The notes under the pieces were generated by a model. It worked only from the letters and a program-made list of their open reading frames with translations. It had not been told where the DNA came from and did no database searches. Shown one piece after another: positions 5,108 to 51,822 of a stretch of DNA of 64,000 nt. The stretch comes from Methanobacteriota archaeon (GTDB lineage: Archaea > Thermoplasmatota > SW-10-69-26 > JACQPN01). The position numbers were made by a program, and so were the translations under genes. The DNA is taken from positions 12,350-76,349 of the forward strand of contig JACQPN010000002.1 in the NCBI GenBank assembly GCA_016207515.1. The letters are read 5' to 3'. Numbering within the stretch: position 1 is the first letter of the stretch; every line of letters starts with the position of its first letter.

Positions 5108-5265
5108 AGCCCCAGAAGGAGTCGGCGAGTAGGTAGATAAGCATTATGGCCCGGAATGGACGTCCATCGGACGCCTTACTATAGGCTTTCCGTGCGCGAC
5201 GTTCTCAGGGGAAGGCGCGTTCCGGTGCGGAACCGTCTTTGCCTAGGAGCTTCGTAAATCGTCTG

Positions 5266-6423
5266 ATGCCCCGCGTCGCCGTCGTCGGAGCCGGCCATTC
5301 AGTTTTCGGCGACCGTAACCTTACTCTCCGCCAGCTTTTCCACGAGGCCTTCACCGAACTCGCCTCCAATGTCGATCGCAACTTCGACGCGCGAGACATC
5401 GAGGAGGCATACATCGGTTCCCTCGGGTTCGGCGGCGGCCAACTGGGAAACCTCGGCCCCTTCGTCACCGAGACCTCCGTGTCGCCTTCTATTCCCTGTC
5501 GCCGCGTCGAGAACGCGTGTGCCTCCTCGGGCTATGCGTTTCGCGATGCCGTCCTTGCGGTGAAGTCCGGGGAACGCGACCTCGTCCTCGCGGGAGGTAT
5601 CGAACGGATGAACGACCTCTCGCCGATCCACAAGCGTTTCTGGCTCGGGGTCTCCGGCGACACCGAATGGGAACGCACGGCAGGCCTCACGTTCGCCGGA
5701 GTCTACGCGTTGATGGCCGAGCGCCACATGATCGAGTACGGGACGACACGGGAAGCGCTCGCGGCCGTCGCCGTGAAGAACCACGCGAACGGCGCCAGAA
5801 ACCCGAAAGCGCAGTTCAGGAAGGAGATAACGATGGAGAAAGCGCTCCAATCGGCGGAGGTCGCCTCGCCGCTCCATCTTTTCGACTGTTGCTCCACGAC
5901 GGACGGGGCGACCGCCGTCCTCGTCGCATCCGAGGAAGTGGCGCGCGAATTGACGGACACGCCCATTTGGGTCACGGGTTCCGGAGCGAGTTCGGATCAT
6001 CTGGCGCTCATGTCGCGTAAGTCCTTGACACGTCTCGACGCGACGGCCCGCGCAGCTCGAGACGCGTTCGCGCAGGCGGGGCACACGGAAAGCGATGTGG
6101 ACGTGGCCGAGGTCCATGACTGCTTCACAATCGCGGAAGTGATGGCCGTCGAGGACCTTGGCTTCGTCGCCAAAGGCGAAGGCGGGCGCTTCGCCCTCGA
6201 AGGCCGGGGAAGAATAGGCGGCCGGCCGACGATCAATCCAGGTGGCGGCCTCAAGGCGAAGGGCCATCCGCTCGGCGCGACCGGCACCGGCCAGGTGTAC
6301 GAGGTGTGGAAGCAGCTACGGGGCCAAGCGGGAGAACGGCAGGTGGAGAATGCCGAGGTCGGTCTTACGCACAACGTCGGCGGCTCCGGCGCGAGCGCCG
6401 CGGTCCATGTCCTGGAGCGCTGA
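5266..6423 (+). CDS. thiolase (acetyl-CoA C-acetyltransferase, archaeal type)
   Basis: N-terminal MPRVAVVGAGHSVFG, active-site Cys context (ENACASSG), C-terminal GHPLGATG and NVGGSGAS motifs typical of the thiolase fold. Confidence 0.9.
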   Translation: MPRVAVVGAGHSVFGDRNLTLRQLFHEAFTELASNVDRNFDARDIEEAYIGSLGFGGGQLGNLGPFVTETSVSPSIPCRRVENACASSGYAFRDAVLAVKSGERDLVLAGGIERMNDLSPIHKRFWLGVSGDTEWERTAGLTFAGVYALMAERHMIEYGTTREALAAVAVKNHANGARNPKAQFRKEITMEKALQSAEVASPLHLFDCCSTTDGATAVLVASEEVARELTDTPIWVTGSGASSDHLALMSRKSLTRLDATARAARDAFAQAGHTESDVDVAEVHDCFTIAEVMAVEDLGFVAKGEGGRFALEGRGRIGGRPTINPGGGLKAKGHPLGATGTGQVYEVWKQLRGQAGERQVENAEVGLTHNVGGSGASAAVHVLER

Positions 6424-6425
6424 AG

Positions 6426-7613
6426 ATGGCGGGGGTCGCGTCGTTCGGCATCGCGTATCCTTCCTTCGAGGTACACGTAGATGAGAAGAGGCGCGGCAAG
6501 ACGCGACGGTCCGCCTTGCGGCGGCTCGTGACCGCGTTCGACGAAGACGAGAACACGCTCGCCGTCGACGCGGTCCGCGCGGTGCTGGCCCACACGCGGC
6601 TCTCACCGCGCGAAATGGCCTGCGTGTTCGTGGCATCGACCGCTCGCAAGCCGCGCCCGAGCGCCTTCGGCGAAGCGTTCTCGGAGACCACCGTCCTCGA
6701 TGTCCTCGAACTCACCGGCGTTCCCGTCGTGAGGTTTCCGGACACGCCAATCGGCGCGGCCAAGACGCTGCTTGCGGCGGCGACTCGATCTGGGGACGAA
6801 GACAGACCGATGCTCGTCTTGGCGACCCATGACGCGTCTCGATCGCTTTCCGGCGGCGCTTTGGCGGCCGCGGCCATAGTCACACGGACGGGAACCTGCG
6901 ATCTTTCCCTGCCGACCGGTTTCAAGGGGAGATCGGTCTCTCGCGCACTCGGCGTGGTCGACATGGGGGCAGCGGGCTTCATCGCCGAACTCATGGATGC
7001 TGTCGCCGCGGTCCGAAGCGATCGGTTCACGCTCGCCCCTTCAGGCTCTAAGCGTCCCGTCTTGGGGGTCGGACGGGCCGCAGATGTGCCGGGTGCTTTC
7101 CGCTTCGAGCCCAAGACGACGCCGATCCCGCAGGAGTCCTTCGACCGGTTGCGGGCAATAGGTGTGGAGACCGGGCACATCCACGACAAACCCATGGGGG
7201 CTTTCGTGTCTCAGGCCACGTGGCTTGCCGGCTCCCGGGCCCGCTACCATTTGGAAGGCGCGGTGTGCGGTTCATGCAAGGCCGTGAACTTCCCGCCCAA
7301 CGAGACTTGCAACGAGTGCGGCGCCGGACAGATGGTGACGCTTCGCCTTTCGGGGCGCGGCACGACATACTCGCTCACGAGGATCGGCCGGGGCGGGGCG
7401 CCCGCCGAGTTCGCGATGCAGGAGGCGCTTTCCGGGCCGTATTGGGTGGCGATCGTGGAACTCGACGAAGGGCCGAAGGTCGTTTCACAACTTGCCTGCG
7501 GGTTTGGCGGCGAGCCCACGGTGGGGACAAGAGTCCAGGCGGCTTTCAGGCGCATCTACAAGCAGGACGGGTCTTCGCGATATGGCCTCAAGTTCGTGCC
7601 AAGCGTGCCTTGA
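6426..7613 (+). CDS. DUF35-type Zn-ribbon/OB-fold protein with a long condensing-enzyme-like N-terminal extension
   Basis: ATG 3 nt after thiolase stop; C-terminal CGSC...(FPP)...CNEC zinc ribbon followed by OB-fold-like segment; N-terminal ~260 aa resembles a thiolase-fold enzyme but no catalytic Cys is evident. Confidence 0.75.
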   Translation: MAGVASFGIAYPSFEVHVDEKRRGKTRRSALRRLVTAFDEDENTLAVDAVRAVLAHTRLSPREMACVFVASTARKPRPSAFGEAFSETTVLDVLELTGVPVVRFPDTPIGAAKTLLAAATRSGDEDRPMLVLATHDASRSLSGGALAAAAIVTRTGTCDLSLPTGFKGRSVSRALGVVDMGAAGFIAELMDAVAAVRSDRFTLAPSGSKRPVLGVGRAADVPGAFRFEPKTTPIPQESFDRLRAIGVETGHIHDKPMGAFVSQATWLAGSRARYHLEGAVCGSCKAVNFPPNETCNECGAGQMVTLRLSGRGTTYSLTRIGRGGAPAEFAMQEALSGPYWVAIVELDEGPKVVSQLACGFGGEPTVGTRVQAAFRRIYKQDGSSRYGLKFVPSVP

Positions 7614-7899
7614 GCGTTTTGTGCGTCAGGCCCATTGGTCCGACCAGGTCTAAAGCAGACGTTTTGAGAAAGGTCTTTCCACCGCGCGCCCCCTCGGCGC
7701 CTCCGTGGCGCAATGGCTATGGGCGGCCCTTCTCGTTTTCTTGATGGTCGCGCGGCCGGCTGGCCGGGCCCGAAAAGCGCGCGTACCGCCACGCAAGACG
7801 GTGAAGACCAAGCCGAGAAGGGCGAAGCGCGCCGCGTCCTCCCTCGTCCGGGGCGGGCATCGTGTCGTGGGCCCTAGGCGTGCCGGTGTCGCCCCACCG

Positions 7900-8403
7900 A
7901 TGAGCACCGACGACGATAGAGGGACGTCGGCGAAGCGCGGAACGCCACCAAGCGTCGAACGCAAGAATGCGGTGGACGAGGCGAAGCGGATCCGTGTGCC
8001 CGGACACCAGGCGGGCGAGGATGCCGCGGGTGAGCCGAGGCGGATCCGCGTGCCAGAAGCGATCCTTCGCAAGATGTACGTGGAGGGAAGCCTCGCGAAC
8101 GCCAGGCAATCCGTCGTCTTCAGTCTACGGAACCAGTTCTCGACGGCAACGATCGTTTCGTTCCCGCAGCTCTTGATCGATGGCGCGAGAGTCGCCGTTG
8201 CACGACTCTGCGTGAAGGTCGCGGCCAAATCGACGCTCGCGAAATCCGTCCGCGACTCGCAGCCGTTCGTCTTCGCCAAGAACGATGAGGCTGTCTTCTT
8301 GGTCGATACAAAGCGCCTCGCGGCGGGCGTACACTCCGTACAATTGACGGCGGACACGCGTGAGTGGGGGCGGCTTGTCGTGGAGTTCGAAGCGAGTATT
8401 TGA
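7900..8403 (+). CDS. hypothetical protein
   Basis: ORF 7705..8403; more protein-like than the overlapping antisense ORF 7650..8357 (Ser/Thr/Arg-rich); start uncertain (ATG 7900 chosen); contains an internal direct repeat (RIRVPGHQ / RIRVPEA). Confidence 0.4.
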   Translation: MSTDDDRGTSAKRGTPPSVERKNAVDEAKRIRVPGHQAGEDAAGEPRRIRVPEAILRKMYVEGSLANARQSVVFSLRNQFSTATIVSFPQLLIDGARVAVARLCVKVAAKSTLAKSVRDSQPFVFAKNDEAVFLVDTKRLAAGVHSVQLTADTREWGRLVVEFEASI

Positions 8404-8559
8404 CGGTCTGCGGCTGGCGACCGATAAGGGAGGGCGGATCCGAGGATGGCCGGGTTTACCAGTGCTTTTTCCTGAGCCCGCGCCCTCGAAGCGGTTTTCG
8501 TAGTAAGTAGACAATGCTCAAGACTCCCGGGATGCAGACAGGTACACGCGAGGGTTGCC

Positions 8560-8769
8560 TTGTATCCGCCACCACGGTGCGCCGTCTGCCGAAGGCCGAT
8601 CCTGGAGGGTAGAAGAACCGATTATTTCGGGGTAGGGACACCGCCGCCAAACGCGCGGCACGTCCACGTTCCCGACCAACACCCCCTCGCGCTCCTCCTT
8701 TGCCACGGTTGCGCTTCATTGGCTCGTTCGAGGGTAGAAACGGGACCGTCGTCGTTCGGCCTGGCGTGA
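8560..8769 (+). CDS. small zinc-ribbon protein (CxxC...CxxC), paralog 1
   Basis: 69 aa, TTG start; CAVC...CHGC; shares CxxCxxP[IV]LxGxxxDYF N-terminus with the ORF at 8979. Confidence 0.45.
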   Translation: MYPPPRCAVCRRPILEGRRTDYFGVGTPPPNARHVHVPDQHPLALLLCHGCASLARSRVETGPSSFGLA

Positions 8770-8978
8770 TCACGGGCTCCGTTTTGCCTCGCGTGATGAA
8801 GCCCCGGACTCATGGTTTCGGCGGCGCGCAATCGTACTAGGGGCCGATCCGGCGCATTCACACGCGGGTCGGCATCAGGGCGGCTCGCCCGCGAACACGG
8901 TGGCGACCTTTTCTTAAACATACCGGCAAACGTTAATCACCGCCCCTAGACGACCATCACCCGTCAGAAGGGCGAAGC

Positions 8979-9221
8979 GTGTCAGCGTCCCCAACGTGTC
9001 GAGAGTGCGGCAAGCCAGTGCTTGGCGGAAAGCACGCGGACTACTTCAGTCCCCCAGAGAACACGGGGTGGCTTGGAGAAGCGGAGACCACCGTCGATCA
9101 CGACCGGCGGATCCTGTTGGCCACCGACACTACGAAGCCGGATCCGAGGCTTTGCTTCGATTGCAAGGCCTTGCGGGAGCGTGCTCGCATCGCCGACTTG
9201 GGACGCTTGGCCCGTTCGTAG
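8979..9221 (+). CDS. small zinc-ribbon protein (CxxC...CxxC), paralog 2
   Basis: 80 aa, GTG start; CRECGKPVLGGKHADYF ... CFDC; paralogous to the ORF at 8560. Confidence 0.5.
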   Translation: MSASPTCRECGKPVLGGKHADYFSPPENTGWLGEAETTVDHDRRILLATDTTKPDPRLCFDCKALRERARIADLGRLARS

Positions 9222-9445
9222 ACGGCATCCCACACGGGCGGTTTGTGACCCTTCGCCCCTTCGTTCGATCATTGCTTTGTCGGCGGTCGCCGGCATCCGG
9301 CGCGCGCTGGCGCTCACCGTTTCCTGCCCGTCGACGCGGGCGAGAGGTCCGGCGGCATCGCGACGCGTCGTCTTGTCTTTAGCTTGGCAGCGGGCGCGCC
9401 GGCGCTATGTTCATTAACGATTAGCCGCTTGGCGAAGCGACGCCC

Positions 9446-10765
9446 ATGATCGACCTTTCGAAGCGCCGCTACTCGCTCGCGATAAGTCCCGCCGACGACG
9501 GCAAGGAGGCCGTGGTCGCCGGTTGGATCCACGAGTCGCGCGACCTCGGCGGCATCGCGTTCATCATCCTGCGCGACCGGGAGGGGACGCTCCAGGTCGT
9601 GCTTCCGAAGAAAAAGATCGAGAAGCAGCTGCTCGACCAACTGTTGGGCATCAACCGCGAATCGGTGATCGCGATCCGCGGGAGCGTGAAAGCCTCGCCT
9701 CAAGCGCGTAACGGTTATGAGATATTCCCGCTCGAAGTAGAGGTGCTTTCCCGGGCGGCGGCCCCACTGCCTCTTCCCGTGGCGGACAAGGTGCATGCCG
9801 AGATCGACACGCGTCTCGACAACCGGTACATGGACCTCAGAAAGCCCGAGGTCGCGGCGATCTTCCACGTTCGTAGCGCGATGCTCCGGTCGGCCCATGC
9901 GTTCTTCGCCGAACGCGGTTTCACGGAGATCCATACGCCGAAGATGATCTCCGCCGCTTCCGAGGGCGGGACCGATCTTTTCCCCGTCGCCTATTTCGAG
10001 AAACAGGCGTTCCTTGCCCAATCGCCGCAACTCTACAAGCAGATGATGATGGCGACGGGCCTCGACCGGGTCTACGAGATCGCGTGGTACTTCCGCGCGG
10101 AGGAGCACAACACGCGTCGCCACCTCAACGAATCGACCGCCATCGACGTGGAGATGGCCTACGTCTCTAGCGAAGAGGACGTGATGGGCCTTCTGGAACG
10201 GCTTATCCAACGGATCTGGACGGACATCACGAAGAACGAGACAGCGGCGCTCGCGGCCGTCGGGGCGAAGCCCGTGGTGCCAACGTTGCCGTTCCCGCGC
10301 GTCACCTACGACGAGGCCATTCGACTCGTCAACGAGGCGGGGTTGAAGCTCGAATGGGGCGAGGACCTCGGCACCGAGGGCGAGAAGAAGCTCGGCGATC
10401 TCATGCTCGCGAAGGGGCACGAGTTCTACTTCATAAAGCATTACCCGGCAGCGGCGAAACCTTTCTACGCCTACGTGGAGGACGGGTCGCAGCTGTCTCG
10501 TTCGTTCGACCTCGACCACAAGGGACTCGAAGTCACGAGTGGGGCCCAACGGCAGCACGATTCCGACAAACTCGTGAAGCGATTGGAGGAGAAGGGCCTG
10601 AATCCGAAGGATTTCGAGGCGTACTTGTCCGCATTCCGTTACGGCATGCCGCCGCACGGCGGGTTCGGGTTGGGGATCGAACGTCTGGTGATGGAACTTC
10701 TTGGGGTCGAGAACGTGCGGGAAGCGATACTGTTCCCGCGCGACAGGCAGAGATTGACCCCATAA
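9446..10765 (+). CDS. aspS: aspartate--tRNA ligase (archaeal/eukaryotic type)
   Basis: 439 aa; N-terminal OB anticodon-binding domain, class II motifs (FRAEE, GMPPHGGFGLGIERL). Confidence 0.95.
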   Translation: MIDLSKRRYSLAISPADDGKEAVVAGWIHESRDLGGIAFIILRDREGTLQVVLPKKKIEKQLLDQLLGINRESVIAIRGSVKASPQARNGYEIFPLEVEVLSRAAAPLPLPVADKVHAEIDTRLDNRYMDLRKPEVAAIFHVRSAMLRSAHAFFAERGFTEIHTPKMISAASEGGTDLFPVAYFEKQAFLAQSPQLYKQMMMATGLDRVYEIAWYFRAEEHNTRRHLNESTAIDVEMAYVSSEEDVMGLLERLIQRIWTDITKNETAALAAVGAKPVVPTLPFPRVTYDEAIRLVNEAGLKLEWGEDLGTEGEKKLGDLMLAKGHEFYFIKHYPAAAKPFYAYVEDGSQLSRSFDLDHKGLEVTSGAQRQHDSDKLVKRLEEKGLNPKDFEAYLSAFRYGMPPHGGFGLGIERLVMELLGVENVREAILFPRDRQRLTP

Positions 10766-11814: not shown

Positions 11815-12042
11815 ATGCGACCAAAACACAACCGATTGGAATCCGTCTTGGAGGCAAGCGAGGCACGGTTCGAATCGGGCGAACACCTGGAGGCGCCCGA
11901 AGCGCCGAAAGAGGCAGCGAACGTGGAACACAGGATCCGGTCCGTCGACTCGATCGCCCGCACGATGAGCATCATCAACAGGCACCCGATGCACGTGAAG
12001 GGTGGGTTCGCGGAAGGCACAGACGCCTGGAACAACGCGTAA
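11815..12042 (+). CDS. hypothetical small hydrophilic protein
   Basis: 75 aa; ATG ~50 nt downstream of TATA-like gtataaataatcc (11758-11770); its last codons lie inside the first copy of the tandem repeat. Confidence 0.35.
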   Translation: MRPKHNRLESVLEASEARFESGEHLEAPEAPKEAANVEHRIRSVDSIARTMSIINRHPMHVKGGFAEGTDAWNNA

Positions 12043-12264
12043 GGGGGACCGAGGGCCCGGGAGGGCACGAGGTCGCCCACTTTGGATGCACCCTTTGGCC
12101 CTGGCGCAAACAACTGTTTGCGCGGGGCCGCGCGCACGCCCGGCGTGCGCCGCGGTAAAGGGTGCTGGAGCAACGCGTAGGGGGGACCGAGGGCCCGGGA
12201 GGGCACGAGGTCGCCCACTTTGGATGCACCCTTTTGTAAAGGGTGCTGGAGCAACGCGTGGCGC
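12027..12264 (+). repeat. tandem direct repeat (two full ~70-bp copies plus a partial third) with GC-rich hairpins
   Basis: ctgga(a/g)caacgcgt(a)gggggaccgagggcccgggagggcacgaggtcgcccactttggatgcaccctt at ~12027 and ~12165, partial copy at 12245; palindromes gcgcaaaca-ac-tgtttgcgc and gcgcacg-cccgg-cgtgcgc between copies. Confidence 0.8.
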
Positions 12265-16416: not shown

Positions 16417-17865
16417 GTGCCCACCGAGTGGACGGAGAAATACCGCCCAAAGACCCTTGCCGACGTGGCGGCCAACGCAAAAGCGCTCGCCGATATGAAG
16501 GCGTGGGCGGATAGCTGGGAAGCGGGCGTACCGGAGAAGCGCGCTCTCCTTCTTTCAGGCGACCCCGGGATAGGAAAGACCTCGGCCGCCCATGCGCTCG
16601 CCCACGACATGGGGTGGGGAGTGATCGAGTTGAACGCGTCCGATTCGCGTAACGAAGAGGCGATCCGGCGAGTCGCGGGCGCGGGTTCGAAGCACCGCGG
16701 GTTCGGTGCCGACGGTAGCTTCGTGAAGGACACGAACGCCGGCCGCACCCTCGTCATCCTCGACGAGGCGGACAACGTCTTCGGCCGCGAGGACCGGGGC
16801 GGCGTGAAGGCGATCGCGGAGACCATCCGCGAGACGGCGCAACCCATGATACTCATCTGCAACGACCAGTACGAGTTGCAGCGACGCGGCGCCTCCCTCG
16901 TCAACCAATGCAAGGTCGTGAAGTTCAGCCACGTGATGAAGAACGCGATCCCTCCAGTGCTTCGGAACATCCTGAAGGCCGAGGGGATGACGGCGGAACC
17001 GGAGGCGCTCATCAACATCGCGGAGCGTAGCGGCGGCGACCTTCGAAGCGCCATAAACGACCTTCAGGCGTTGACGGCGGGAAAGACCGAGTTGAAGGCC
17101 GCCGACGTCGAAGCAATCGGCTTCAGGGACGCCCGCGCATCCATCTTCGACGCCGTGCGCGAGATATTCAAGTCCGAGAAGATCGACTCCGTGCGCACGG
17201 TGCTTTTCGACCTCGACGAAACGCCCGACATGCTACTCCTCTGGCTCGACGAGAACCTTCCATTGGAATACAAGGACCCGGCGGATCTGGTCGAAGGCCT
17301 CGCGTGGCTCTCCCGCGCCGACACGTTCCTCGGGAGAACGGTGCGGACCGGGAACTACGGCCTGTGGCAGTACGCGAAGGAGACAGCGGCGTTCGGGGTC
17401 ACCGTCGCCAAACGCCGGCGCTACCCCGGCTTCACGCCCTACCGGTTCCCGACCTACCTCAAGAAGATGTCCACCGCCAGGGCGATACGGGAGACGAGAA
17501 AGTCCGCTTCGCGCAAAGTAGGCGAGGCGCTCCACGTGGGCCGGCGCGTCGCCCGAAACGACGTGTTCCCGTTCCTACGCACACTCTTCACGAATGTCCC
17601 GACGCTCGGGGGCAAGTTCGTCCACGACTTCGACGTGGAGGACCACGAGTTGGCGCTCATCATGGGGTCGGGCGTCGATTCGAACGAAGTGAAGGCGGTG
17701 CTTGAGGAAGCGAAGAAGATCAAAGCGCTTCCAACGGCGAAAGGAGCGCCTACGCCGGAGCCCGAACCCGTGGAAGAGCCCGAACCGGCCGAGGAAGCAC
17801 CCCCACAAGAAGAGGAGCCGGAAAAACCCGCCCCGAAGAGGCAGAAGAAACTCATGGAATTCTAG
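16417..17865 (+). CDS. rfcL: replication factor C large subunit
   Basis: 482 aa; AAA+ Walker A (GDPGIGKTS), Walker B (ILDEAD), acidic C-terminal tail ending KRQKKLMEF (PIP-box-like). Confidence 0.92.
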   Translation: MPTEWTEKYRPKTLADVAANAKALADMKAWADSWEAGVPEKRALLLSGDPGIGKTSAAHALAHDMGWGVIELNASDSRNEEAIRRVAGAGSKHRGFGADGSFVKDTNAGRTLVILDEADNVFGREDRGGVKAIAETIRETAQPMILICNDQYELQRRGASLVNQCKVVKFSHVMKNAIPPVLRNILKAEGMTAEPEALINIAERSGGDLRSAINDLQALTAGKTELKAADVEAIGFRDARASIFDAVREIFKSEKIDSVRTVLFDLDETPDMLLLWLDENLPLEYKDPADLVEGLAWLSRADTFLGRTVRTGNYGLWQYAKETAAFGVTVAKRRRYPGFTPYRFPTYLKKMSTARAIRETRKSASRKVGEALHVGRRVARNDVFPFLRTLFTNVPTLGGKFVHDFDVEDHELALIMGSGVDSNEVKAVLEEAKKIKALPTAKGAPTPEPEPVEEPEPAEEAPPQEEEPEKPAPKRQKKLMEF

Positions 17866-17921: not shown

Positions 17922-18107
17922 ATGGACAAACCCCAAGACCAGAGGGAGTACGTGATCTACACGTGCTACCCGATAGAAGAGTGCGGCTTCTCCGTGAGAA
18001 GCCACAACGAGGAGGAAGTGGTGGACATGGCGGTCATCCACGCCGAGAAAGGGCATAAGATGCGAGTCTCCAGGGCGGGCGTCAAAGGATTGATCAAGAA
18101 AGGGTAG
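17922..18107 (+). CDS. DUF1059-like small metal-binding protein, copy 1
   Basis: 61 aa; C..P...CGF.V.SH.EEEV......HAEKGH pattern. Confidence 0.65.
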   Translation: MDKPQDQREYVIYTCYPIEECGFSVRSHNEEEVVDMAVIHAEKGHKMRVSRAGVKGLIKKG

Positions 18108-18157
18108 GCGCCAGAGGATTCGAAGGCTTTTTTTGGGGCGAACGCTTGGGCCCACGC

Positions 18158-18340
18158 ATGGACGAGCCTACGCCAAAGAAATTCCACGTCTTCGTTTGCT
18201 TCCCGATCACCGATTGCGGCTTCACGGTGAAAAGCCACGACGAGGACGAAGTCATCGAGACGTACCTCCACCACGCCGAGAAGGTGCATGGAAAGAAGGC
18301 GTCGAAGGCGATGGCCAAGGGAATGATCAAGGTGGAGTGA
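18158..18340 (+). CDS. DUF1059-like small metal-binding protein, copy 2
   Basis: Paralog of 17922..18107 (FHVFVCFPITDCGFTVKSHDEDEVIETYLHHAEKVHG); ATG 18158 chosen (TTG 18146 possible). Confidence 0.65.
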   Translation: MDEPTPKKFHVFVCFPITDCGFTVKSHDEDEVIETYLHHAEKVHGKKASKAMAKGMIKVE

Positions 18341-49589: not shown

Positions 49590-51218
49590 ATGATGGCAGG
49601 AGGACAGCAGGTAATTATCCTAAAGGAAGGCACCCGCCGCGATCGCGGAAAGGGCGCACAGTCGAACAACATCCTCGCAGCTAAGGCTGTTGCAGAAGCG
49701 GTCCGCTCGACACTTGGGCCCAAGGGCATGGACAAGATGCTCGTCGATTCGATGGGCGACGTCGTCATCACGAACGACGGAGCGACGATCCTCAAAGAGA
49801 TCGACGTCGAGCACCCCACGGCGAAGATGATCGTGGAGGTCTCAAAGACCCAGGACGAGCAGTGCGGCGACGGCACGACCACAGCGGTCGTCCTCGCTGG
49901 TGAACTCCTCAAGCAGGCAGAAGACCTCATCGAGGACGTCCACCCGACGCTCATCACGGCCGGCTACAGGCTCGCAGCCGACAAGGCCATCAAGGTCTTG
50001 AACGACATCGCGAAGCCCGTGACGCTCTCCGACACCGCCACCCTAGTGCGCATCGCCCGCACCTCGATGGCGTCGAAGTCGACGAGCACCTACTCCGAGC
50101 ACCTCTCGACGATCGTCGTTGACGCGGTCACCGCGGTCGCAGAGAAGACCGGCAGCGAATGGAAGGTCGACAAGGACAACATCAAGATCGAGAAGAAACA
50201 CGGTGGCTCCATCGAAGACACCGAGCTCATCGAGGGCATAGTCCTCGACAAGGAGAGGGCCAACAGCAGGATGCCCTCGACCGTCGCGAGCCCGAAGATC
50301 GCCCTCATAAACGCCGCCCTCGAGATCAAGAAGACCGAGGTCGACGCGAAGATCGAGATAACGGACCCGAACCAGCTCCAGGCGTTCCTCGACGAGGAAG
50401 AGCACACCATCAAGAAGCTCGTCGACTCCGTCGTCGCGAGCAAGGCCAACGTCGTCTTCTGCCAGAAAGGTATAGACGACCTGGCGCTTCATTACCTCGC
50501 GAAGGCCGGCATCTACGCCGTCAAGTCCGTCAGCGAGAAGGACATGAAGAAGCTCGCAAGAGCGACTGGCGCGAAGATCGTCAACAACCTCAAGGACCTC
50601 ACCTCGAAGGACCTCGGCACCGCCGGGAACGTCGAGGAAAGGAAGATCGCCGATGAGGAGATGACCTTCGTGACGGGCTGCAAGGGTGCGAAGGCCGTGA
50701 CCATCCTGGTCCGCGGCGGCACCGAGCACGTCATCGACGAAGTCGAGAGGAACCTCGACGACGCCATCGGTGTCGTGCGCTCGGCCGTCGAGGACGGAAA
50801 GATCGTCGCCGGTGCAGGTGCCCCGGAGATCGAGGTCGCCCTCGCGCTTCGGAAGTACGCAAGCTCGGTCGGGGGCCGCGAACAGCTCGCCATCGAGCGC
50901 TTCGCATCCGCACTCGAGATAATCCCGAGGACACTCGCGGAGAACGCCGGTCTTGACGCGATAAACGCGCTCGTGGACCTTCGTCAGGCCCACGAGAAGA
51001 AGCAGACCTACGCCGGTCTCGATTTAGACACGGGCAAGGTCGTCGACGCGTGGAAGGCCAACATCCTTGAGCCTCTCCGTGTCAAGACCCAGGCCATCCA
51101 GTCCGCAACCGAGGTCGCGACGATGATCCTAAGGATCGACGACGTGATCGCGGCCAAGGCGTTCACCCCCCCGCCCCCGGGCGCGGGCGGCGAACACGGC
51201 GGGATGGGCGATTACTGA
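49590..51218 (+). CDS. ths: thermosome subunit (group II chaperonin)
   Basis: 542 aa; [34 protein letters not shown]-terminal GGM-like tail. Confidence 0.95.
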
Positions 51219-51822
51219 GCATCGACCCAGGTTCCAAAACCAGGCGGGTTCCGGATGAGGGGCCCGCCATTATTCTTTTTTCTCCCATGATTGATGCCTG
51301 TGAGTGCCCTGAGTGTAGGTCGTGCGGGGGGCGCCCTGAAATAGCCCTGACGTCAATTCATTGTGATTCGCATTCAGAGCCGTTCGTCCGCTTTTCAGGT
51401 CAAGTCCTTCACTTTTGCAAGCCGTGCTTTGCGAATCATCTGACGGCCGTGCAATCACGCTCGTCGATTTGTTGTGCCAACGATTTGGTGCACCTCTCGT
51501 CGCACCGATTCGTCAACGCGAGCGGCGTTGAATATTTTCTCCGCTGACGCTGGTCCGTCTTCGAAAACGTGGCGGAACCCGCTGAAGGATTCGGGTTTTC
51601 CACCTTGGTGGTATGGGAACCTGGGGTGCGGAGTATCGGCATAGAATAGTAACAAGCACGAGGCCCGATCCGTCGCCGTTATTATGTGAAGGTCACCGGC
51701 ATTTCCAGAGCCGAAGGACGGCCATGACGTTTCAAGGGGTGAGGGGTGCAAACGATTTGGTGCCAAAAGGCGCCGTTACAAGCCTTTATGGCTCCCGTCC
51801 AGGTTCAGGTCTCGGTGACCGA

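Follow-up and report, generated by a model that had tools for sequence, protein, structure and literature searches.

Proteins of fewer than 100 amino acids with paired Cys patterns abound in archaea. Many members of the 'CPxCG-related' class, which Tarasov et al. (2008) defined by a motif, are unannotated; within the very small archaeal proteins, those with Cys/His patterns account for about 8% (PMC2253796). A precedent for a function is Brz of Halobacterium salinarum, which is encoded just upstream of bop and controls bop transcription (PMC2253796). In Haloferax volcanii, C(P)XCG microproteins such as HVO_2753 and HVO_0758 are functionally diverse, many being orphan or narrowly distributed and having pleiotropic or unknown functions (PMC11241148, PMC10716476). 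Only some of these proteins bind zinc: of 14 haloarchaeal C(P)XCG proteins that were purified, 5 contained no zinc, and some carried another metal (PMC11241148).

Here, we examined a comparable pair of small genes, ORF1 and ORF2, in the window, i.e. the whole 64-kb stretch of archaeal DNA that was analysed. Its source is a metagenome-assembled genome (MAG) labelled 'Euryarchaeota archaeon' at NCBI and related to Thermoplasmatota. Both ORFs lie on the plus strand inside the 1,042-nt gap (8404-9445) that separates a gene for an HMG-CoA reductase N-terminal domain from aspS (Table 1). The initial annotation, made from the sequence alone, had given the coordinates, strand, TTG and GTG starts and lengths of 69 and 80 aa correctly, and had placed the pair in an otherwise empty 1-kb gap downstream of a hypothetical gene. 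The gap is real, but ORF2 already figures in the NCBI annotation, and the upstream gene is not hypothetical, as its product is a stand-alone domain protein matching PF25653. Further upstream lie a thiolase gene and a gene for a 395-aa protein (5239-6423 and 6306-7613), the latter protein ending in a DUF35/ChsH2 zinc ribbon and OB fold. The thiolase, DUF35 and HMG-CoA-reductase-N genes form an unusual mevalonate-pathway-related cluster.

Table 1. Features in and around the gap upstream of aspS (window coordinates). Promoter and Shine-Dalgarno functions are putative.
Feature	Position	Strand	Remarks
Stand-alone HMG-CoA reductase N-terminal domain protein	7900-8403	+	167 aa; PF25653, E = 2e-13
Conserved A/T-rich box GGTTTTCGTAGTAAGTAGACAATG, candidate archaeal TATA/BRE promoter	8493-8514	+	45-67 nt 5' of ORF1
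GAGGG, putative Shine-Dalgarno-like element	8550-8554	+	5 nt before the TTG of ORF1; kept in L003
ORF1	8560-8769	+	TTG start; 69 aa; 7.5 kDa; CxxC at residues 7-10 and 48-51
Non-conserved spacer, ORF1 to ORF2 promoter-like box	8770-8905	.	50% identity, 31 gap columns vs L003
Conserved A/T-rich boxes TTTCTTAAACATA ... AACGTTAATCA, candidate promoter	8910-8940	+	38-70 nt 5' of ORF2
AGAAGGG, putative Shine-Dalgarno-like element	8966-8972	+	6 nt before the GTG of ORF2
ORF2	8979-9221	+	GTG start; 80 aa; 8.8 kDa; CxxC at residues 7-10 and 59-62
Non-conserved spacer, ORF2 to aspS promoter-like box	9222-9395	.	40% identity, 45 gap columns vs L003
aspS, archaeal-type aspartyl-tRNA synthetase	9446-10765		3' neighbour of the gap

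The ORF1 protein is Pro-rich and basic (pI 9.3) and contains four cysteines. The ORF2 protein, also with four cysteines, is near-neutral and has a basic amphipathic helix at its C-terminus, after the second CxxC. Alignment of the two confirmed the common N-terminal signature and the second CxxC pair that had first drawn attention to them, within the motif M-x3-P-x-C-x2-C-x2-P-[IV]-L-x-G-[KR]-x2-D-Y-F ... L-C-x2-C. BLASTP aligned the two proteins with 13/31 identities (E = 1e-6), and profile-profile comparison of the ORF1 ortholog pair with the ORF2 ortholog pair using hhalign gave E = 4.4e-6 and a probability of 87%. The proposed paralogy is thereby borne out at the sequence level, at least across the N-terminal module. 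Furthermore, the duplication appears to be old, since the motif and the logic of the Cys spacing are all that ORF1 and ORF2 have in common, their DNA being unlike.

Small open reading frames are abundant in the window, which at 63% GC holds 332 six-frame ORFs of 50-120 aa. A CxxC...CxxC pattern occurs in four of these, two of which are the adjacent, same-strand ORF1 and ORF2. When 460 small ORFs of the window were all compared with one another by BLASTP, the pair ranked 5th, behind other repeats of the window that include one Pfam-confirmed tandem gene pair. A profile built from four sequences revealed no third copy of ORF1 or ORF2 in the window.

A second tandem pair of small paralogues was observed at 17922-18107 and 18146-18340, both on the plus strand, encoding 61 and 64 aa. 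Their products share 44% identity over 59 aa (E = 1e-17) and match Pfam DUF1059 with 26.7 and 27.7 bits (cut-off 21.1). The 482-aa gene directly 5' of this pair (16417-17865) we take, by eye, to encode the large subunit of replication factor C. We also observed a putative Cys-rich ORF of 86 aa at 51287-51547 on the plus strand (MIDACECPECRSCGG...CKPCF...), which has no Pfam match and directly follows a 542-aa gene (49590-51218) that presumably, again judged by eye, encodes a thermosome/chaperonin subunit.

Evidence that the two ORFs are protein-coding came from one pairwise comparison between the window and a close relative, the 1,244-nt JGI metagenome contig L003, which is the only independent relative found and was reached through the single protein-database match of ORF2. 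The Logan contigs L001, L002 and L087 match the window at 100% identity and therefore add nothing to this comparison. In L003, the length, start codon and stop of ORF1 and ORF2 are unchanged, and all four cysteines of each ORF, eight in total, are kept. Nucleotide identity reaches 84% for ORF1 and 86% for ORF2 with no gap column in either, and the 453 nt of the ORFs are free of indels, vs 76 gaps among the 316 columns of the spacer alignment. Substitutions accumulate at third codon positions (5/10/19 by position in ORF1 and 6/5/23 in ORF2, compared to 4/3/19 in the aspS control), an excess with P = 0.006 for ORF1 and P = 5e-5 for ORF2. The Nei-Gojobori dN/dS ratio is 0.23 for ORF1, 0.11 for ORF2 and 0.08 for aspS, vs 0.6-2.6 in shifted frames, and the corresponding dS values (0.46, 0.54 and 0.38) are mutually consistent. 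Codon changes in ORF2 are 21 synonymous and 9 non-synonymous, and its GC3 of 0.74 is gene-like, neighbouring genes ranging from 0.73 to 0.82. The strongest constraint at the protein level lies in the middle of ORF2, with 2 changes in 33 residues (dN/dS = 0.065). These signs of purifying selection on both ORFs sustain the proposal that the pair are real genes: as judged by this comparison, ORF2 is certainly protein-coding, and ORF1 very probably so.

The case of ORF1 can be read differently, with ORF2 as the only functional gene and ORF1 as a duplicate that is decaying or lacks a function and has kept its frame open by chance. ORF1 begins with TTG, its GC3 of 0.66 is a weak compositional coding signal relative to its neighbours, 15 of its 69 residues differ from L003 with dN/dS rising to 0.41 in the middle third, no pipeline calls it, and chance frames of its length are common at this GC content. 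Against this, the frame has the same length, start and stop in both genomes and, together with its upstream region, spans 280 nt without indels between spacers full of them. Selection on its sequence is evident from the overall dN/dS and the third-position bias, and is strongest across the motif (dN/dS = 0.11), which is complete and retains every cysteine. We consider it unlikely that ORF1 is such a relic.

According to another explanation, the conserved islands are non-coding, serving as promoters, operator sites or a small RNA, and both ORFs are chance frames in GC-rich DNA. Chance ORFs are indeed plentiful in the window, and the non-coding blocks adjoining ORF1 and ORF2 are also 77-94% conserved. 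However, codon-position periodicity and low dN/dS are found in the ORF1 and ORF2 frames only, and the two ORFs resemble each other as proteins without resembling each other as DNA. A structured RNA or leader was likewise rejected: an Rfam search gave no match, even at E = 1, and folding stability showed no excess (z-scores of +1.8 and -1.2). A non-coding origin of the conservation is thus largely refuted and, in our view, very improbable.

The region 5' of each ORF is itself conserved, unlike the spacers: the block at 8490-8559 upstream of ORF1 is 80% identical to L003, and the block at 8906-8978 upstream of ORF2 is 77% identical, both without indels. TATA-like boxes stand at comparable distances 5' of other genes of the window. 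Judging from sequence and position, the A/T-rich boxes and purine-rich elements listed in Table 1 are candidate promoters and Shine-Dalgarno sites. The spacer that separates ORF1 from the promoter-like box of ORF2 is unconserved, indicating that ORF1 and ORF2 are separate conserved islands rather than one frameshifted gene. A single frameshifted gene spanning both ORFs was rejected on this ground and because the spacer indels are not multiples of three and L003 has a long open frame that is interrupted in the window. The lack of conservation of the second spacer argues against a conserved aspS leader RNA. With unconserved spacers on either side, two independent transcription units are likelier than one operon.

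Two repeated oligonucleotides were observed in this region. A 14-mer, AGAAGGGCGAAGCG, which contains AGAAGGG, occurs exactly at 7816-7829 and 8966-8979. The 9-mer GGCGAAGCG is present in 14 copies in the window vs 2.6 expected, 8 of the 14 lying within 6187-9439, and two copies directly precede the start codons of ORF2 and aspS. No wider motif was seen in the flanks of the 9-mer copies. Its excess may be an effect of codon usage (Ala-Lys-Arg) or may mark a real site.

Automatic annotation has treated this pair poorly, as the initial annotation had anticipated for small zinc-ribbon proteins. ORF1 is called by no pipeline, and calls at ORF2 differ: NCBI lists the full-length protein of 80 aa as hypothetical protein HY556_00620 (MBI4392287.1), JGI a shortened form, and the gene caller used on Logan contig L001 an antisense ORF of 104 aa on the minus strand (call at 8982-9296) in place of ORF2. 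The NCBI genes flanking HY556_00620 are HY556_00615 and HY556_00625, and the three protein accessions are consecutive, which shows that ORF1 has no NCBI annotation. Furthermore, the ORF1 sequence is missing from a collection of 15 billion proteins and is annotated nowhere. Exact look-up of ORF1 and ORF2 as translated from the raw window returned no record; residue 1 was read there from TTG or GTG and may differ from that of recorded proteins.

The JGI call (L003 522-725) begins at an internal GTG of ORF2 (V14) and loses the first CxxC. Among the 13 ORF2 codons 5' of this GTG, 3 differ from L003 synonymously and 1 non-synonymously, and this stretch is paralogous to ORF1. Both facts argue that the long form carrying the first CxxC is right; the truncated start would drop half of the ORF2 metal site. 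The antisense ORF (8982-9317), if it were the real gene in place of ORF2, would have in its favor the prediction by a gene caller. Read in that frame, however, the codon changes relative to L003 are 4 synonymous and 26 non-synonymous, GC3 is 0.62, and the 5' third falls in the indel-rich spacer upstream of aspS, whose lack of conservation argues against it. Its L003 counterpart differs in length and ends, and both NCBI and JGI call the plus strand. This makes an antisense gene extremely unlikely. Our analysis thus documents ORF1 as an unannotated gene and corrects two faulty automatic calls of ORF2, and the locus exemplifies how microprotein genes go missing from GC-rich archaeal MAGs when their start codon is TTG or GTG.

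Beyond aspS, amid overlapping repetitive ORFs, a sequence of at least 46 nt was observed as a direct repeat at 12027-12072 and 12165-12210, the two copies being 96% identical. Both Logan contigs stop exactly at this repeat (12027-12210), indicating that it breaks short-read assemblies.

Searches for homologues outside L003 gave no relatives. No family in Pfam, NCBIfam, PHROGs or PADLOC matched ORF1 or ORF2 at threshold. In a word-index search of 5.8 billion proteins, ORF1 retrieved none, and the matches of ORF2 were limited to its own cluster, which consists of the NCBI protein and the fragment called by JGI. A profile HMM run against 1.84 billion cluster representatives returned the ORF2 cluster and a TPR/CHAT protein, which was rejected as spurious because its 'LGxEHPDYA' repeats mimic 'LGGKHADYF'. 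The best 80 archaeal aspS loci of GTDB genomes contained no motif and no tblastn match, nor any analogous Cys4 ORF 5' of aspS, and a metagenome scan by peptide patterns gave no match. Degenerate DNA motif scans of metagenome and viral collections yielded three chance matches with very short open frames, two of them the same sequence, and tblastn of ORF2 against plasmids and phages yielded none. A profile search of the PDB gave only sub-threshold LIM-knuckle matches, and Foldseek comparison of the ORF2 model with the PDB returned nothing with E below 6.

The neighbouring aspartyl-tRNA synthetase (AspRS) has no relative above 70% identity among the 5.8 billion proteins or 185,579 GTDB species-representative genomes; synteny differs in the nearest genome (AspRS 70% identical), and the next AspRS matches, at 60-64%, are from Thermoplasmatota MAGs. 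The ORF1-ORF2-aspS synteny is conserved over a very short evolutionary distance only. Tblastn and profile searches, as proposed at the outset, led to no relative other than L003 and to no known family, and the family first suggested is seen in two closely related genomes. As far as present data go, the sequences of ORF1 and ORF2 mark them as an orphan family of a sparsely sampled archaeal lineage.

Single-sequence AF2 models of the two proteins were of low confidence (pLDDT of 59 and 48). In both, a beta-bridge surrounds the first CxxC, prediction of the middle is poor, and the second CxxC marks the exact start of a helix; in ORF2, pLDDT is about 71 for the knuckle and about 80 for helix 60-78. 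With low confidence, these models suggest an arrangement closer to a treble-clef than to a classical two-hairpin zinc ribbon. The zinc-ribbon label given initially is thus not upheld, as no zinc-ribbon family matched at threshold and the second CxxC opens a helix in the models. The middle of ORF2, although modelled as disordered, is probably structured or an interface, as it is the most constrained part of the protein.

Whether a metal occupies the four cysteines is a question that AF2 fails to answer for such Cys4 sites (PMC11241148). Zinc binding by both proteins is the probable outcome. The genes could also be genuine while the Cys4 site lacks structural zinc, holding iron in a rubredoxin-like redox centre, nickel, cobalt or nothing. 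The purified haloarchaeal proteins that lacked zinc or carried another metal set a precedent for this (PMC11241148), and nothing in the sequence of ORF1 or ORF2 fixes the identity of the metal. Conversely, the Pfam scan listed no rubredoxin or Fe-S family with E up to 1, and, in contrast to rubredoxin, the CxxC pairs are separated by a long variable insert (37 and 48 residues). We regard a site without zinc as improbable.

The best explanation, to which we assign a probability of roughly 60%, is that ORF1 and ORF2 are a lineage-specific tandem pair of separately expressed genes for Cys4 metal-binding microproteins. The pair would have arisen by tandem duplication, each gene being expressed separately. 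Each protein would coordinate a single metal ion, probably Zn2+, through its two CxxC pairs: an N-terminal knuckle, set within P-x-C-x2-C-x2-P-[IV]-L-x-G-[KR]-x2-D-Y-F, and a C-terminal pair that would cap an alpha-helix. The rare TTG start, weak GC3 and higher dN/dS of ORF1 count against this explanation. Following the precedent of Brz and other archaeal zinc-finger microproteins, the proteins may act as small binding modules that contact nucleic acid or another protein and serve as regulators or adaptors. By analogy, a regulatory role is conceivable but doubtful.

No functional tie of ORF1 or ORF2 to aspS or to the mevalonate-pathway genes was found. We consider quite remote the idea that the two are zinc microproteins that cooperate, for example as a heterodimer, and serve a neighbour as dedicated local regulators or cofactors. 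That neighbour could be aspS or its product, a non-discriminating aspartyl-tRNA synthetase, or else the thiolase/DUF35/HMG-CoA-reductase-N cluster. If true, such a cooperating pair would be a Brz-like intergenic regulator system born by duplication. Unless it can be tied to aspS or the isoprenoid genes, the pair has little wider importance, the Cys4 site being the sole functional clue.

Compared with described systems, the tandem microprotein pair is closest in kind to the CPxCG-related class, as both proteins are under 100 aa (69 and 80) with paired Cys patterns, and both genes are intergenic and of the kind that often goes unannotated. The likeness to Brz is one of position, ORF1 and ORF2 lying upstream of aspS in the same orientation as Brz relative to bop, and any regulation of aspS would be hypothetical. 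No sequence similarity to Brz or to any member of the class was found. The class is defined by motif rather than homology, and neither ORF fits the full definition: ORF2 has a CPxCG-like pattern in CRECG (CxxCG), whereas ORF1 has none (CAVCR, CHGCA), and the class spacing of 7-40 includes the 37 of ORF1 (C10-C48) but not the 48 of ORF2 (C10-C59). The Haloferax C(P)XCG proteins resemble the pair as very small archaeal proteins with four cysteines in two CxxC pairs. The pair falls outside their definition, as the 80-aa ORF2 protein has only one CxxCG and ORF1 none; a trailing Gly is present in 1 of the 4 CxxC motifs of the two ORFs and a Pro in 0 of 4, and the pair belongs to a GC-rich non-haloarchaeal lineage.

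At the structural level, ORF1 and ORF2 recall treble-clef and zinc-ribbon Cys4 modules through the 'C-x2-C-G-K-P-[IV]-x-G' knuckle and the modelled position of the second Cys pair at a helix N-terminus. The best sub-threshold matches were Cys-knuckle families, namely DksA/TraR, double zinc ribbon and LIM. The DksA/TraR C4 finger (PF01258) scored 15.2 bits with ORF2 against a cut-off of 24.9, over residues 6-14 only, and did not match ORF1. The Cys pairs of DksA/TraR are 17 residues apart, and the spacings of 37 and 48 in ORF1 and ORF2 are far above this value. The double zinc ribbon PF18912 (DZR_2) scored 13.5 bits with ORF1 against a cut-off of 27. The best PDB profile match, the PINCH LIM domain (E = 0.048), covered the knuckle only, and a LIM domain requires eight zinc ligands in two fingers, whereas each ORF provides only four cysteines. 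Set beside these systems, ORF1 and ORF2 are an ordinary orphan example of the small zinc-finger-type proteins common in archaea.
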